NCBI GenBank assembly: GCA_051652765.1
Contig: JBOFUV010000064.1
Coordinates: 1 to 52,800, forward strand
Reading direction: 5' to 3'
From: Microcoleaceae cyanobacterium
GTDB lineage: Bacteria; Cyanobacteriota; Cyanobacteriia; Cyanobacteriales; Microcoleaceae
DNA: 52,800 bases
Positions 18,864-27,417 of this stretch are shown here, piece after piece. How positions within the stretch are numbered: the stretch's first letter is position 1; every line of letters starts with the position of its first letter. Both the position numbers and the translations under genes were made by a program. The notes beneath the pieces were generated by a model. The model did not search any database. It saw only the letters and a list, made by a program, of their open reading frames with translations, and had not been told where the DNA came from.

Positions 18864-20207
18864 CTAATAGGCAATCTCCCAAACGGCATGGGCGACCTCA
18901 GGACGGGTAATATCATTATGAGCCCCTTCAGCGCGATTGCCCTCCCGAATGAACTCACTGCCATCCAGGTTGTAAATCACTCCGGGCTGAAACTCGTAGG
19001 CAATCTCTCTAGGATTCATCTTTAGTTCTACGGCATTGAATCCAACTCCGCCCTGAGCCCCAAACGCCCCAACTGATCCATATTCAGGCAAAGGGTCAGA
19101 ATTACTATAAAAACTAATTGATTTTGCGAACAAACTGGCCGCATTGGCCGCCAGGGGATACCACTTGTTCAAGGCGATGTCAAACCTAGACTGAGTTGTA
19201 ATTGCAGGCCCAGAGATTTTACCCTGGGAAAAAATTCTGTGAAAATAACCCGGAGTACCGGGAGCTAGGGGAATATCCGGACAATAAGACCAATGGGAAA
19301 GGGCTCCCTGAATCAGTGCTAGGGAGTGTAGCGGACGCACCAACTGTCCTTGACTAGCCTTTCCATTCAACATCCCAGACATAACAATACAGCCAAAACT
19401 GTGGCCCATCAGGTGAAATTGAACTGCTGGACGGGCTGCCTGTTGGAGCTGGGTCAAGAGTCGAAATCCTCCAGTTTCGCCGATTTGACGGGCCCGATCT
19501 TTCATTTTCCAAAAGGACAATGTTCTCAAGGGAGCCAACACCCCACCCCAACTGAACCCTGCATAGCTTAGCGCTTCTTGTCTCGCCACCAAAAAGGTAC
19601 TGTCGGGGTCAAAGGGCTCTCGATCGGCACTTGGTTTCGCGCCCAATCCCTCACTGCCGAGGGAAGCTTCACGATCCAGAATCCGATAGGCATCCCCCAC
19701 TTCTGCGGGCAGTTGCTCCGGAGAAATATCCTCGACAGCCGCCTCAAAAACAGTCTGTAATGCCTGTCGGGCAGCCGGGGTCTCTGAAATTCGCTCAGCG
19801 TACTGATTTACCAGGTAGTCAATACCAGCATCAACTGGCGTGTCAAAGTATGGAGCAGCCGCGATCGCCGAACGGGTCAATTCATATTCCCCCCAGGGTT
19901 CACTGGGCCAATGAATGCCCACAAGACAAGGTGAAAAACCCGGACGAATTTGGCGCATTCGTTCTAAGTCTGCCGCTTGGTTCACCATAGTCTCAATCCA
20001 AGCCCCATATTGCAATCGGGCTGCAGGAACATCACTCAACCAACCATGGCTGAAGATAAATACATCTGTAATGGATGGTTGCTGTAAAGCCTCAACAATG
20101 AGGTTACTCATTTTTCCATCCGGATCATCTAAGCGTTCATTTCCCTTCGGATCAAACGCCACGAGGAAGTATTTAAGATCACTTCCGGGCACAGTTTCAA
20201 TCGGCAT
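18864..20207 (-). CDS. Alpha/beta-hydrolase-fold hypothetical protein
   Basis: FIFSHGW, nucleophile elbow GHSFG, C-terminal GAHNDI. Confidence 0.75.
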   Translation of the reverse strand: MPIETVPGSDLKYFLVAFDPKGNERLDDPDGKMSNLIVEALQQPSITDVFIFSHGWLSDVPAARLQYGAWIETMVNQAADLERMRQIRPGFSPCLVGIHWPSEPWGEYELTRSAIAAAPYFDTPVDAGIDYLVNQYAERISETPAARQALQTVFEAAVEDISPEQLPAEVGDAYRILDREASLGSEGLGAKPSADREPFDPDSTFLVARQEALSYAGFSWGGVLAPLRTLSFWKMKDRARQIGETGGFRLLTQLQQAARPAVQFHLMGHSFGCIVMSGMLNGKASQGQLVRPLHSLALIQGALSHWSYCPDIPLAPGTPGYFHRIFSQGKISGPAITTQSRFDIALNKWYPLAANAASLFAKSISFYSNSDPLPEYGSVGAFGAQGGVGFNAVELKMNPREIAYEFQPGVIYNLDGSEFIREGNRAEGAHNDITRPEVAHAVWEIAY

Positions 20208-21762: not shown

Positions 21763-22247
21763 ATCTCTCAAACTCAAAGTTTAACTTCTCGCACAAGGAA
21801 TAGCTAATAATTCCTATTCTAACTCTACTTCTTCAGATTCTTCAGAGGTTAATAGACACCGGACACATAGATGAGAGCCTTCGCTCAAACCCCTACCCCC
21901 TTCTCTTGGGCCAGAATTAGGTGTCATTTTTGCCTTGAAAACTTTGTTTGAGATCTTGAGGATGATTTGTTGTCACCAAAGATCTAGGCCCTAGACCGGA
22001 TCTGGCAAGCTTTGTAAACTACTGGCCTAACTGATTGCCTTGACAGATCTGAGCCAAAAACTGCACAAGCTTTTCAACTCAGGACTTACACAAGAACAAT
22101 AGAAATAGTAGGTCGCTTGAGCTGCTCGAGCAGATCATTGGAAAGCAACCCATGCTTGAGTTGATAGACTGTGCAACCCCTGTGGTAGGCCAGGGTTTTC
22201 AGTCTTGTCCAAACCAATAGAGCACAGGCAATGTGTAGGAGATTTAG

Positions 22248-22531
22248 GGGTTTGGTATGAGATCAACGCGGGTTTGGTGTGAGATCAATGCGGGTTTGGT
22301 GTGAGATCAACGCAGGTTTGGTATGAGATCAACGCAGGTTTGGTATGAGATCAACGCAGGTTTGGTATGAGATCAACGCAGGTTTGGTATGAGATCAACG
22401 CGGGTTTGGTATGAGATCAATGCGGGTTTGGTGTGAGATCAATGCGGGTTTAGTATGAGATCAACGCGGGTTTGGTAAGAGATCAACGCGGGTTTGGTAA
22501 GAGATCAACGCGGGTTTAGTGTGAGATCAAT
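22248..22531 (+). repeat. 22-bp tandem repeat, 13 copies (GGGTTTGGTATGAGATCAACGC), last copy partial
   Basis: Exact 22-bp period with no spacers and scattered point variants. Confidence 0.95.
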
Positions 22532-22575
22532 CTGAACTTAAACGTAACCCGCCACAGATTTATTCAATAATCAAG

Positions 22576-22659
22576 TCAGAAATAACTTCTTCTACCATAG
22601 TGCTTGAGCCGAATCAGATCGCGCACCTGCTCCAACAGCTTTTTCGGGCATTGTTCCAT
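22576..22659 (-). pseudogene. intI: Truncated integron integrase (IntI N-terminal remnant)
   Basis: Translates MEQCPKKLLEQVRDLIRLKHY-GRRSYF*. The first 21 aa match the IntI start (PKKLLDQVRxxIRLKHYS), divergent from the cassette array. Confidence 0.8.
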
Positions 22660-22902
22660 TTGGGATTTATACAGAAAATTTCAAGGTAATCCTCCGAATA
22701 AATCGATATTAGGCCGAACATTGCTGTGTTTCATCGTGAGGATATACATCCTAAATTTCAGGATAATCCTCAAATTTAGGATGTATACCCAGAAAGTTTC
22801 AGTATAGTTGCAGTATTAGGGTGGACTATATGGAAAGTTTCAGGGTAATCATCCCAAAAGCGTTGGTTATGCAGAAAATTTCAATATAATAACTAGTTGG
22901 AC
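22660..22902 (+). other. Putative attI site and Pint/Pc promoter region
   Basis: Core GTTGGAC at 22896-22902; TATAAT at 22885-22890 with TTGGTT 16 bp upstream; phased GAAARTTTCA repeats; 45-bp palindrome at 22743-22787. Confidence 0.65.
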
Positions 22903-22963
22903 TCCCTTGTTTTATCAAATTAGAGTATTTGACAGATTCAACATAAATCACCCTACGTATGCC

Positions 22964-23989
22964 ATGTCTCCCGATTCTCGTCGCTCTGTCAGTCTGTTTG
23001 TCTGCTTGATATCTCTACCTTTTTCACTCATGTTTTTGGGTGATACGACACAATCCTCAAAGTCTGTCATGGTTCAAATGACAACACCAACAGGCATTCT
23101 TTATGGAACAGAGATCATTCCAACGCCTAATGTGCCAAAGCCAGTGGCACTGATCATTGCGGGTTCAGGTGCAACTGATCGCAACGGAAATAATCCTCTG
23201 GCTGGGCAGAATAATAGCCTCAAACTACTGGCTGAAGGATTAGCTGATCACGGCATTGCCTCGATACGATACGACAAGCGCGGTATTGGGGAAAGTTCAG
23301 CCGCAGGAGCTAGAGAAGTTGATTTGCGTTTCGATACCTATGTTGAAGATGCTGCACTTTGGATTCAGCAATTGCAGGCAGATTCTCGTTTCTCAAGCGT
23401 CACCGTGATTGGTCACAGTGAAGGATCTCTAATTGGAATGCTGGCGACTCAAAAAACTGGAGCAAATGCTTTTGTATCAATAGCAGGACCTGCTCAAACT
23501 GCATCACAAGATTTACGAGATCAACTGCGACCTAAATTGCCAGACGCATTATGGCAACAGAATGAGCAGATTCTTGCTGCTCTAGAACAAGGTAATACAG
23601 TGACTTCTGTGCCACCAGAACTAGACATGCTCTACAGATCGAGCGTACAACCCTATCTCATTTCCTGGTTTCGCTATACCCCTACTCAAGAGATTAAGCG
23701 TCTAACTGCACCTGTTCTAATCGTTCAAGGAACAACTGATATCCAAGTGCCTGTTAGTGAGGCGCAAGCCCTGAAAATGGCTAAGCCGGATGCGGAGATT
23801 AGAATCATTGAGGGGATGAATCATATCTTAAAAGCTGTTCCATTAGACCCTGAACAGCAAAATGCTTCCTATTTTGAGCCAACGCTGCCAGTTGTGCCTG
23901 AACTAGTTGAGGGCATAAGTCAATTTATTCACAGCCGTGGAATGCGCCGTGAGTCTAACCAGTCGCTGCACCGGAACGCCGAAATATAG
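22964..23989 (+). CDS. Alpha/beta hydrolase (cassette 1; start uncertain, ORF open from 22907)
   Basis: IIAGSGATDRNGN, RYDKRG, GHSEG, QGTTDIQV, GMNH; reads into attC1. Confidence 0.85.
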   Translation: MSPDSRRSVSLFVCLISLPFSLMFLGDTTQSSKSVMVQMTTPTGILYGTEIIPTPNVPKPVALIIAGSGATDRNGNNPLAGQNNSLKLLAEGLADHGIASIRYDKRGIGESSAAGAREVDLRFDTYVEDAALWIQQLQADSRFSSVTVIGHSEGSLIGMLATQKTGANAFVSIAGPAQTASQDLRDQLRPKLPDALWQQNEQILAALEQGNTVTSVPPELDMLYRSSVQPYLISWFRYTPTQEIKRLTAPVLIVQGTTDIQVPVSEAQALKMAKPDAEIRIIEGMNHILKAVPLDPEQQNASYFEPTLPVVPELVEGISQFIHSRGMRRESNQSLHRNAEI

Positions 23990-24039
23990 TCAGTTGAGTT
24001 ACAACGGTTATCTGCGTCCGGTGAGCTTGGTCGTTATAC
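23953..24039 (+). other. attC1 recombination site
   Basis: R'' GTCTAAC; L'' arm GCTgCACCGGaACG pairs with CGTCCGGTGAGC leaving 2 extrahelical bases; R' GTTATAC. Confidence 0.88.
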
Positions 24040-24134
24040 GTGTCAATATTCTGGTCGGGAAAGTGGTTTAGAAGTTGTCTGTTAGCATCAGATGAATTGC
24101 AGAAACAGAGAGTCATCTGGAAAAGCTCACAGAT

Positions 24135-24677
24135 TTGCCGAAAGATTTGCCCATCCCAGTAGACGATGGTGCTTGCAACCACTTGCTGGGGAAATCTTTG
24201 CCATTGATCGCTTTATCTTCAACTCAAGGCGAGTATGTAGATTTATCAGAGATTCCTGGTCATGTTGTCATTTATTGCTATCTAATGACGGGGCAACCTG
24301 GTATTCCTCTACCTGATAGATGGGACGAAATCGCTGGAGCAAGGGGATGTACTCCTCAATCATGTGCTTTTCGGGATCATTATCAAGAGCTAAATGAATT
24401 GGGAGCAAAAGTTTTTGGCTTTAGCACTCAAAGTACTGAATATCAGATGGAAGCGAAGATACGCTTGCATTTACCTTTTGATCTTTTGAGTGATTGTGAC
24501 TTGAGCCTTGCTAATACTTTGAAATTGCCAATGTTTGAAATAGAAGGCAAGCATCTTGTTAAACGAATTACACTGATTTCGGAAGATGGAAAAATTGTCA
24601 AAGTCTTCTATCCAGTTTTTCCACCCGATAGAAACGCCGATGAAGTTATTGACTGGCTGCAAGCTCACGCCGTATAA
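24135..24677 (+). CDS. Peroxiredoxin (BCP/AhpC-TSA family; cassette 2)
   Basis: LPIPVDDGAC, GARGCTPQSCAFRD, KVFYPVFPP; stop TAA lies inside attC2 R''. Confidence 0.88.
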   Translation: MPKDLPIPVDDGACNHLLGKSLPLIALSSTQGEYVDLSEIPGHVVIYCYLMTGQPGIPLPDRWDEIAGARGCTPQSCAFRDHYQELNELGAKVFGFSTQSTEYQMEAKIRLHLPFDLLSDCDLSLANTLKLPMFEIEGKHLVKRITLISEDGKIVKVFYPVFPPDRNADEVIDWLQAHAV

Positions 24678-24759
24678 CAACGCCCATGCACACCGACCGT
24701 CGAAAGTTGATCGGTTAGAGTTAAAGGTTATCTGCGGCGGGTGATTGGGAACGTTATGC
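24672..24759 (+). other. attC2 recombination site
   Basis: R'' GTATAAC; CCCATGCACACCGACCG / CGGCGGGTGATTGGG imperfect stem; R' GTTATGC. Confidence 0.85.
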
Positions 24760-25030
24760 CGCTGAGTTCTCGGTTGGGGCAGTACTTCAGGGTTGCTGGT
24801 GGGGACGATTAAGACGGAACTACGTTTAGCAGTGGCGAAGGGTGCAGCAGCTAAAGGTTCTGATTTGCTAGTATTGACGAAATTCTGCCCTTGGCGGATT
24901 TGCTCTTTTAAACAACGACGTATGACCTCAGAAATCCAACTACAAGCTTCTTCAGTAGAACTTGCTACAACGCTGGATTCCCTATCTACAAGCCTGTCTA
25001 CATATCTTTGGATAACACCTTGTAAGATCA

Positions 25031-25537
25031 ATGATATTTGCAACAGATGTTTACTATCGAGACAACAAAGCTGTTGCGGCAGGAGTACTGTTCAATGACT
25101 GGGAGGATCATGAACCTGTCAGTGAATTAATTGTCCAAATCGATAATGTGACAGAATATGAGCCAGGACAATTTTATAAGCGTGAGTTGCCTTGTATTTT
25201 GGAATTATTGAAACAACTCAAATGCTTGCCAACGTACATTATTGTTGATGGGTATGTTTATTTAGATGATGCAAAAAAGCCTGGACTCGGCAAGCGCTTG
25301 TATGATGCACTTCAAGCAAAATCTGTAGTTATCGGGGTTGCTAAGAGTCGGTTTAAAGATATATCCGATAAAAGTGAGATATTCAGAGGTGCTAGTCAGA
25401 AACCGTTGTACGTAACTGCGGTTGGCATCAACGAATCTGAGGCAAAAGATCTCATTTCAAGAATGTATGGTGAACACAGAATACCAGCAATGTTAAAGTT
25501 AGCGGATAGTCTCAGCAGACAAACTAGAGCGGCATAG
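25031..25537 (+). CDS. Endonuclease V family protein (cassette 3)
   Basis: TDVYY, YEPGQFYKRELP, VDGY, IGVAKS, KPLYVT, GEHRIP. Confidence 0.85.
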   Translation: MIFATDVYYRDNKAVAAGVLFNDWEDHEPVSELIVQIDNVTEYEPGQFYKRELPCILELLKQLKCLPTYIIVDGYVYLDDAKKPGLGKRLYDALQAKSVVIGVAKSRFKDISDKSEIFRGASQKPLYVTAVGINESEAKDLISRMYGEHRIPAMLKLADSLSRQTRAA

Positions 25538-25597
25538 CTATCTGGCTGGAGCGGATTGGTAAGAGTCTTCTGTAGCCGCTCAGCCGGATAGTTAGCT
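25532..25597 (+). other. attC3 recombination site (R'' AAC changed to AGC)
   Basis: GCATAGC; TATCTGGCTGgAGCGG / CCGCTCAGCCGGATA stem with extrahelical G; R' GTTAGCT. Confidence 0.8.
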
Positions 25598-25865
25598 TTC
25601 CAGCCCCAGCGGTAGGGTTCTGTCAGGGAACTTTCTTCCCAACAGGTTCCGGTTTTGTTCAGTTGCTTGTAGGAGTGCGATCGCCCCCAATTAAAGGTTG
25701 GGTTCGTCCAGGTTTTCTTCACCATCCACAGTCCCAGAGCATGGTTTCTGAGATGGAAAGGTGTGGTTTTTGTAGGGTGTTGGTGAGAGTGGGAAGTCAG
25801 GAGAGGTGTCAGGGGGGCGATCACTTGAAAGTCCCTGTTTGTTGAGGGAAAGGGCGATCGCAGCA

Positions 25866-25929
25866 AGCTAACAATCCAAATGCAGCGGACTAACGAAAAC
25901 CGCTAGTGCATTGCGAAAAGGAACTGTCG
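25866..25929 (+). other. Truncated attC4 (left half only)
   Basis: R'' AGCTAAC followed by AATCCAAATGCAGCGGAC; no matching L'/R' downstream. Confidence 0.65.
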
Positions 25930-26421
25930 TATTATCTAGCCCATCTAGTCCTTAAACCCTGGCTTAAAACCCGGTAGAAGCATTGTTTTTTCGCCTGCAT
26001 CACACAAAGATCAACTTTCAGAACCTTAGTGCGATCGCATGAAGGGTTGTGCATCAAAGGGTTGTGCATCAGAGAGATGTGAGTCTGATAGAGTGAGGAA
26101 TCATAGAACACACAACAATTCCAGGGTTGTATGTTCCATGGATGAGAATTGGCAGTGTCAAGCTAGACATGTTCATGATGCGATTTCAGGCTGTGAAGAT
26201 CGAATTAGGATATTGATTCAGGTCATTTTGACGATTCATTCCTCTGGTTTGATTTAGCGCTCGCTTGCCCTTTCCATCCCTCCGTTAAAAAACAGCGGGG
26301 ATTTATCGGAGGACAGCATGGCAAATTAGGCTCAGAGACAAACGACAGGAAATTACAGCGTTCAGTTACGGCGCTAAAATATGAAGCGTGACCCATAGAT
26401 GACCTACAGAATCTAATTGCC

Positions 26422-27417
26422 ATGACACGCAAAACAACTCGTCGTCGATTCCTCCTGACAGGAATGGCTGTTGCAAGTGGAGTGGTTGGCAGTAAAGCCC
26501 TTCAGCCGCAACCCGCCCAGACTTTTGCAACCTCGGATATTCAACTGCCTTCAATCGCAACGATGCCCGAACGAGTCCTAGGAAAAACAGGTATTAAGGT
26601 TCCTATTTTTGGTCTGGGCGGAGCCGGTCAAACGCCCTTGTCTAAATCCGGGCAGGAAGCTGAAGCGATCGCCCAGATTGAAGCGGCTTTAAGGTTGGGG
26701 ATTCGGTATTTTGATACGGCTTCTAGCTATGGGCCGAGTGAAGACTACTTGGGAAAGACGTTGCCGCCCCATCGTTCTAATATTTTTCTGGCCACCAAAA
26801 CGGCTGCTCGTGATCGTGATGGGGCATGGCGGGAGTTAGAGCGATCGCTGCAACGGCTCAACACGGACTACCTTGACCTGTGGCAGTTGCATCACGTTTC
26901 ATTTCAGGAGACCCTTGACCAGATTTTCAGCAATCAGGGCGCAATTAAAGCCCTAGAAGAAGCCAAAGCTCAGAAAATCATTAAATTCTCTGGGATTACG
27001 GGACATCATGAACCTGATGTAATTGCTGAGGGATTGCGTCGTTATCCGTTTGATACAACTTTGATCGCCCTTAATGCGGCGGATGTTCATCACCCGCGCC
27101 CGTTTGGGCCAACGGTGTTGCCGATTGCCAAGGCCAATCAAGTTGGGGTGATTGCCATGAAAGTTCCGGCCTATGGTCGCTTATTTAAACCGGACAGACT
27201 TGCAGGAATGCATCAGGCCATGGGTTATGTATTGTCCTTGGAGGGGGTTCACTGCTGTATTATTGCGGCTGAATCGGTGGCACAGCTAGAGTCTAACCTA
27301 CGGGTTGCCCAAGCCTTCAAACCCTTGAACCGGGAAGAAATGGTGGCAATTGAAGGGAGAAAGGCTTCTACCTGGGAAGATAATACCTTTTTCCGAGTTT
27401 GGATTAGGAATAGGTAA
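26422..27417 (+). CDS. Aldo/keto reductase with Tat signal peptide
   Basis: TRRRFL twin-arginine leader; YFDTASSYG, LATKT, DYLDLWQLH. Confidence 0.9.
   Translation: MTRKTTRRRFLLTGMAVASGVVGSKALQPQPAQTFATSDIQLPSIATMPERVLGKTGIKVPIFGLGGAGQTPLSKSGQEAEAIAQIEAALRLGIRYFDTASSYGPSEDYLGKTLPPHRSNIFLATKTAARDRDGAWRELERSLQRLNTDYLDLWQLHHVSFQETLDQIFSNQGAIKALEEAKAQKIIKFSGITGHHEPDVIAEGLRRYPFDTTLIALNAADVHHPRPFGPTVLPIAKANQVGVIAMKVPAYGRLFKPDRLAGMHQAMGYVLSLEGVHCCIIAAESVAQLESNLRVAQAFKPLNREEMVAIEGRKASTWEDNTFFRVWIRNR

Follow-up and report, generated by a model that had tools for sequence, protein, structure and literature searches.

In the 52,800-nt window analysed here (positions 1 to 52,800 of contig JBOFUV010000064.1, assembly GCA_051652765.1 of a Microcoleaceae cyanobacterium), positions 22,576–25,929 harbour an integron platform without an integrase: an attI site and a series of gene cassettes with attC sites are preserved next to a short 5' stub of the integrase gene intI. 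In total, 22 attI sites were found on 20 contigs of the assembly, and among 18 intI remnants detected, 12, including that of the window, end at the same nucleotide of the gene (nt 63), where they are fused to the same 66-bp segment followed by an array of 22-bp repeats. On balance, the evidence leans slightly towards an integrase-less platform that was copied as a non-autonomous unit after this deletion and received its cassettes from an integrase (IntI) acting in trans. In the following, G000 denotes the source assembly (the host genome), C numbers denote its contigs, and G001 and G002 are congeners.

The stub was located on the minus strand (22,659–22,597) and matches nt 1–63 of a congener's integron integrase gene with 89% identity, in agreement with the original prediction of an N-terminal intI remnant. 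Its reading frame comprises 21 IntI codons, followed by six unrelated codons inside the fused segment and a stop at 22,576. The promoter/attI region (type A; 22,660–22,898, plus strand) was recognized by motif match; its crossover G|TT at 22,896/22,897 corresponds to the divergent attI-like site predicted before, and its motif is that of the attI preceding the congener's near-intact intI. The first cassette is joined at the G|TT of this attI, which diverges from the intI start as in an integron. Palindromic-core boxes are present at 22,674, 22,792, 22,833 and 22,874, the last three being spaced 41 bp apart. On the other side of the stub, the 66-bp segment (22,531–22,596, plus strand) forms the bridge to the 22-bp tandem repeats (22,248–22,530, plus strand; 12.9 copies with 93% matches in tandem-repeat analysis). 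The repeat array, the fused segment and the 41-bp-spaced boxes had been overlooked in the first inspection. An Rfam scan of 21,800–26,450 returned no matches at E up to 1, and hence the repeats and att sites represent no known RNA family.

An identical join at twelve places is not explained by twelve local deletions, so that the deletion must have been inherited or converted. First cassettes differ among the 12 loci, their upstream neighbours are unrelated host genes, and an intI 3' fragment is absent at all of them. At a thirteenth locus (C50) the segment is kept and the stub is lost; the segment was also found on C74 without a stub. Since the 22-bp repeats and the 66-bp segment remained unmatched in 80 loci with related integrases, they do not represent the normal flank of intI, and a native 3' flank was rejected. 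Members of the 22-bp repeat family were also observed without a platform on C63, C109, C134 and C145, and at locus L047 of congener G002.

The assembly comprises 5.04 Mb in 158 contigs and is 99.97% complete with a contamination of 0.18%; its density of HIP1 (highly iterated palindrome 1) is 641 per Mb, and the closest integrases are cyanobacterial. The number of attI sites results from 23 motif matches, less three lacking the context, plus two indel variants added by hand. Furthermore, at least 82 attC sites were identified by a covariance model (150 candidates scored) and 85 by a profile at E <1e-3. Grouping of these sites yielded 15 attI with at least one attC, seven attI without a detected attC, 10 clusters without attI and 14 single sites, some groups being arrays split at contig ends (five arrays stop about 138 bp from a contig end). 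All intI remnants are 5' pieces. Matches in tblastn reached only aa 1–117, intI sequence beyond codon 117 being absent from the assembly, and none of the eight TIGR02249 matches exceeded the cut-off; the predicted platform without an integrase was thus upheld by both genome-wide searches for an intact intI. A complete integron would carry an intact catalytic intI beside attI, and the window features the 63-nt stub only. Other tyrosine recombinases considered as trans-acting integrases (seven PF00589 matches) did not reach the IntI cut-off. PF13495 was discarded as a means of counting integrons: it matched 178 of 401 genomes of the order and also 6 of 14 controls, and recovered only 2 of the 18 host remnants. 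Among sequencing runs, none of RNA was listed as containing the sequence. One DNA sequencing run (0.06 share) contained short pieces of cassettes 1 and 2 and none of the platform, and was not used as evidence.

The platforms reside in different surroundings. A separate upstream host open reading frame (ORF) was recorded at 20 of the 22 attI sites (at the remaining two, either no ORF or the stub itself was found), and these 20 ORFs include just one homologous pair, with 31% identity. Most copies are preceded by tens of kb of unique DNA. Likewise, the first 400 bp past attI are clearly common to a single pair (C50/C67), in addition to two weak and short matches. With 22 attI sites, the system does not correspond to a sedentary integron, i.e., one occupying a single conserved locus common with relatives.

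Cassette sites were evaluated with a covariance model for which four other genomes supplied 19 attC sites, and 10 of 12 pairs in it covary; these training sites had been collected with a profile first seeded on the window sites, so that the test is not wholly independent. In the window, attC1 (23,953–24,039), attC2 (24,672–24,759) and attC3 (25,532–25,597; a short site of 66 bp with one R'' mismatch), all on the plus strand, scored E-values of 9e-17, 3e-18 and 1e-6, respectively, and the three sites named in the original prediction were thereby confirmed; for the half site attC4 (25,866–25,920, plus strand), an E-value of only 0.16 was obtained. The sole further match within the 52.8 kb scored 0.43. 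Bottom-strand folding, proposed as a check, gave z-scores of -2.5 for attC1 and -3.1 for attC3, a non-significant -0.9 for attC2 and -0.65 for attC4. As expected for an integron, the sites are co-oriented and carry R and L boxes and a bottom-strand hairpin, attC4 being incomplete. Moreover, each leading heptamer pairs with the R'' box in the attC of the same cassette; the pairing is perfect for cassettes 2 and 4 and has a single mismatch for cassettes 1 and 3. Genome-wide, adjacent site pairs match exactly in 24 of 52 cases (4.2 expected; none of 10,000 shuffles reached 24), even though the script misplaced the end of the window's attC2, an error that works against the result. Pairs of attI and first attC match exactly in 7 of 14 cases (1.5 after shuffling). 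This complementarity of cassette ends is as predicted for insertion by IntI.

A gene-less cassette of 132 bp is the most widespread cassette of the genome. Its start was matched by motif 16 times, one match being false (C97), on contigs C10, C21, C22, C30, C34, C50, C67, C68, C74, C82, C116, C134 and C136, mostly after different attC sites. Its copies are joined at G|TT and are up to 98.5% identical, giving the cassette a younger appearance than the platforms; conservation by selection could explain the identity as well. In several copies the sequence is broken at one common position, either by a MITE (miniature inverted-repeat transposable element) or by other DNA.

Related genomes provide further context. 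Congener G002 contains eight attI-motif matches and stubs of five lengths (119–260 nt), together with one full-length copy of intI that is interrupted by a stop. Its type A platforms are 84–89% identical to the full-length host copies and 74% to the diverged C97 copy. Cassettes common to G002 and the host show 89–93% identity, compared to about 70–80% for flanking genes, and this excess similarity of platforms and cassettes points to horizontal exchange or constraint. On contig C63 of G002 (L045:2814-2904), the integrase is truncated at nt 209, where the right end of an attC abuts precisely on a GTT within intI; this likely represents IntI cutting its own gene. Congener G001 yielded no attC match and no attI motif, as opposed to 82 attC sites in the host and 19 in G002. 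Stubs at several loci are not unique to the host: the closed genome G028, from another family, possesses four 5' stubs of differing lengths at 0.96, 1.53, 1.90 and 3.08 Mb as well as 13 attC matches, and no intI above the cut-off. Genome G016 (L062-L063, 4.478–4.512 Mb) contains tandem units of intI or stub, attI and cassettes, with three near-full intI copies; a repeated host-gene end precedes two of the tandem intI units. Expansion of one shared junction was seen only in the host among 41 genomes searched (first 14 candidates per genome scored).

From the observed platform anatomy, the 22 attI sites, the shared junction, the different neighbours and first cassettes, the mosaic copies and the missing 3' half of intI, we infer the copying step of the slightly favoured explanation. 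One deletion would have joined a repeat element to nt 63 of intI. The deleted unit would then have been copied into new intergenic sites. Most likely, an IntI would have handled a platform bounded by attC like a cassette, with assistance from homologous recombination at dispersed repeats and, in one sub-lineage, from a MITE end derived from an insertion sequence (IS). The copies would have gone on exchanging sequence, and an IntI acting in trans, now lost or unassembled, would have shuttled cassettes between arrays that may be static today and could be reloaded. The absence of any intI 3' remnant at the 12 loci favours copying, since such pieces would be expected to persist here and there if complete integrons had been converted from one side. 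The attC–intI joint of G002 indicates that IntI can bound a platform and is expected if IntI treats a platform as a cassette. Furthermore, a match above the IntI cut-off was obtained for 44 of 401 genomes of the order, making an outside supply of IntI plausible.

Several results weigh against copying of a deleted unit. The junction regions are 81–95% identical (median 88%), copies differing by 5–19%, and a four-gamete test on 28 informative sites found 51% of the site pairs incompatible. Singletons account for only 15 of 45 variable columns, distances of stub and promoter are uncorrelated (Mantel r -0.33, six copies), and a test for distance-dependent recombination gave p 0.075. Accordingly to be read as mosaic and recombined, the copies do not resemble a clean transposition burst. 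Moreover, the junction occurs with either of two promoter types that are about 62% alike, with hybrids on C67 and C103, and both types are present in G002; several platforms therefore predate the junction, which may have been spread by conversion. The 12 loci differ in their left ends, and neither a target duplication nor an empty site was found; the comparison of four loci with the two congeners was uninformative, the latter being too diverged and rearranged. The G|TT signature was seen at 1 of 12 distinct stub ends examined, and at none in the host genome. The region 22,200–23,100 contains no match to the sigma-70 consensus expected of a cassette promoter (Pc), a scan that says nothing on function. 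Finally, the smallest contig measures 1,614 bp, and an intI may sit on a shorter contig that was dropped.

According to the strongest competing explanation, which is rather unlikely, complete or longer integrons dispersed to about 20 loci and were loaded in cis; the repeat-plus-deletion allele would subsequently have replaced many of these through gene conversion, or through one-sided homologous recombination with stub and promoter as anchors. Strong mosaicism and two promoter types beneath one junction fit this course of events, as do the various stub lengths and eight attI-motif matches of G002, the four dissimilar, far-apart stubs of G028 and the tandem intI copies of G016; ragged left ends would suit illegitimate joints. 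However, an intI 3' remnant is missing from all 12 loci, some process multiplying platforms is still required, and the near-identical small cassette in many arrays needs cross-locus IntI activity anyway.

In another, improbable scenario, tandem platforms in one array or a few arrays would have multiplied where they stood before genome rearrangement at repeats and att sites dispersed them. The tandem units of G016 and the platforms immediately downstream of attC on C116 and C61 are compatible with such an origin, but for each new left flank a separate break would be needed, no more than a few hundred bases away from the junction. The flanks of four tested loci are non-adjacent in the congeners; since synteny is poor at integron-free stretches too, this carries no weight. 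The original prediction had regarded the locus as the record of its own integron turning in place into an attC cluster that has no integrase (CALIN). Local anatomy, the eroded attC4 and the degraded cassette 2 would agree with this, yet the identical junction at 11 other loci contradicts it and makes decay of a single resident integron highly improbable. Assembly or binning artefacts, conceivable for a draft of 158 contigs and in view of the five arrays that stop close to contig ends, are hardly credible given copies differing by 5–19%, long unique upstream DNA at most of them, the low contamination and the recurrence of the multi-locus pattern in the closed genome G028.

Returning to copying of the deleted platform, a role of MITEs can be considered for part of the loci. 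On C45, C67 and C101 (the latter ending at a contig break before any stub), the platforms have one common left end, a MITE terminal repeat, with differing flanks. Terminal inverted repeats are lacking at both ends of the window platform, occur at one end at these three loci and form a possible pair only on C50. Class 1 integron fragments mobilised by MITEs are known, in which a piece with truncated intI, bounded by two MITEs, moves non-autonomously; in contrast, the window locus is devoid of MITEs, and only the sub-lineage mentioned carries one MITE end. A MITE of 270–285 bp, built from the two ends of a transposase gene that we take to be of the IS5 family, was observed on C68:1706-1973, C134:25174-25459 and C35:63885-64155; an intact parent was not seen among the loci viewed.

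With three full attC sites and a stub missed by Pfam and TIGR02249, the locus corresponds to the definition of CALINs, namely at least two attC sites without a nearby functional intI and with possible mobilisation in trans (PMC4889954). It is more than a CALIN, because attI is kept together with the intI leader and the platform is repeated 22 times. In the same study, intI pseudogenes were found near only 15 of 279 CALINs, 95% being without a recognisable one; the search relied on C-terminal and catalytic profiles at >50% coverage, to which a 21-codon 5' stub is invisible. Broken and duplicated intI genes are likewise known: about a third of intI genes are broken, and 20% of carriers have more than one, some by duplication (PMC2426708). 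The host differs from these pseudo-integrons in its 18 remnants, 12 of them with one junction, and in the lack of a functional partner in the assembly. Sedentary integrons of Xanthomonas are also chromosomal platforms, with frequent integrase loss and remote CALINs, but their intI occupies one conserved locus (ilvD), whereas here the attI platform itself is dispersed (10.1101/2025.06.18.660453). Insertion of attC-bounded DNA by IntI at non-att sites, as described for single attC sites lacking an integrase (SALINs) and attG, offers a possible route for platforms; it was demonstrated for cassettes, not for attI-bearing units (10.1101/2022.09.11.507474). Moreover, inactivation of integrases is associated with missing LexA control of the E. 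coli type, and the motif bound by the LexA of cyanobacteria is a different one (PMC3108266); a cyanobacterial attC model exists (PMC8352920), and cassette recruitment by natural transformation was described for Vibrio (PMC12614218).

Broken and duplicated intI genes, CALINs and mobilisation in trans are thus already known, and the single locus, as framed originally, would be ordinary by itself. None of the papers listed by the literature searches describes, in its title or in the opening of its abstract, attI platforms that form a family across a genome and have a single intI deletion in common; in the tables of IntegronFinder, such genomes could be entered with several CALINs each. How CALINs arise is an open question, and the host genome shows a route that escapes standard searches, in which many loci carry attI next to a very short 5' stub. 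This suggests that some CALINs may keep an attI concealed behind stubs too short for standard searches, and the finding calls into question the rule that integron platforms have no mobility of their own. As a tentative generalization that we hold somewhat less probable than its opposite, the integrase-less attI platform could be regarded as an 'integron MITE', a non-autonomous mobile element that founds further sites of cassette capture along the chromosome; at least 20 docking sites would then make up a distributed integron served by a single, transient IntI acting in trans, and hidden, reloadable platforms of this kind could underlie many CALINs of cyanobacteria.

The window cassettes are all on the plus strand. 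Cassette 1 (22,897–24,033) harbours an alpha/beta hydrolase gene (ATG at 22,964, stop at 23,989), intact in comparison with a copy that is 89% identical and located at cassette boundaries at another locus of G002, which identifies cassette 1 as mobile. Cassette 2 (24,034–24,753) contains a peroxiredoxin of the AhpC/Redoxin type (frame 24,117–24,677; above the Pfam cut-off, below that of NCBIfam when tested as BCP/PrxQ-like). At the usual start of its homologues a non-ATG codon is present, and Leu replaces a Pro kept in 14 of 14 homologues, the Cys being retained; the gene is likely decaying. A second peroxiredoxin copy, 61% identical, exists elsewhere in the genome, and the oxidative-stress cargo theme suggested originally found no support. 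In cassette 3 (24,754–25,591), a short endonuclease V-like protein (25,031–25,537) is encoded, full length relative to four homologues; PF04493 matched above the cut-off over 115 of 198 positions, and NCBIfam equivalogs remained far below theirs. Elsewhere in the order, this short protein was encountered in four of 250 genomes. An attC match, using a profile trained on the host genome, was obtained at 1 of 14 peroxiredoxin and none of the four endonuclease V-like homologue loci; either these genes mostly lie outside cassettes in other genomes, or the profile overlooked the sites. The body of cassette 4 (25,592–25,865) is unique in the genome, carries two HIP1 sites, lacks a plus-strand ORF of at least 61 aa and has a broken attC, the array terminating in a deletion.

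Comparison of the interval between the DUF1995 and AKR genes in relatives, proposed as a further check, is not informative, as neither congener has the two genes side by side and synteny was poor in the compared stretches. No platform is present upstream of the DUF1995 gene in either congener. Boxes with a period of 40–41 bp were observed in the window (22,667–22,890) and in the intI leaders of loci L079-L143; exact spacing of this kind occurs in about 10 of 26 cyanobacterial intI leaders examined, and others show, by eye, inverted IntI-box-like pairs of similar period. By analogy with DR1/DR2 of attI1 (10.1101/2022.02.06.479319), the boxes may serve as accessory sites for IntI. A short dispersed repeat at 26,060–26,107 of the window is also present on C56, C61 and C145. 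Furthermore, a 447-aa ORF without a Pfam match (18,864–20,207) is kept in both congeners beside metallophosphatase and DUF1995 genes.

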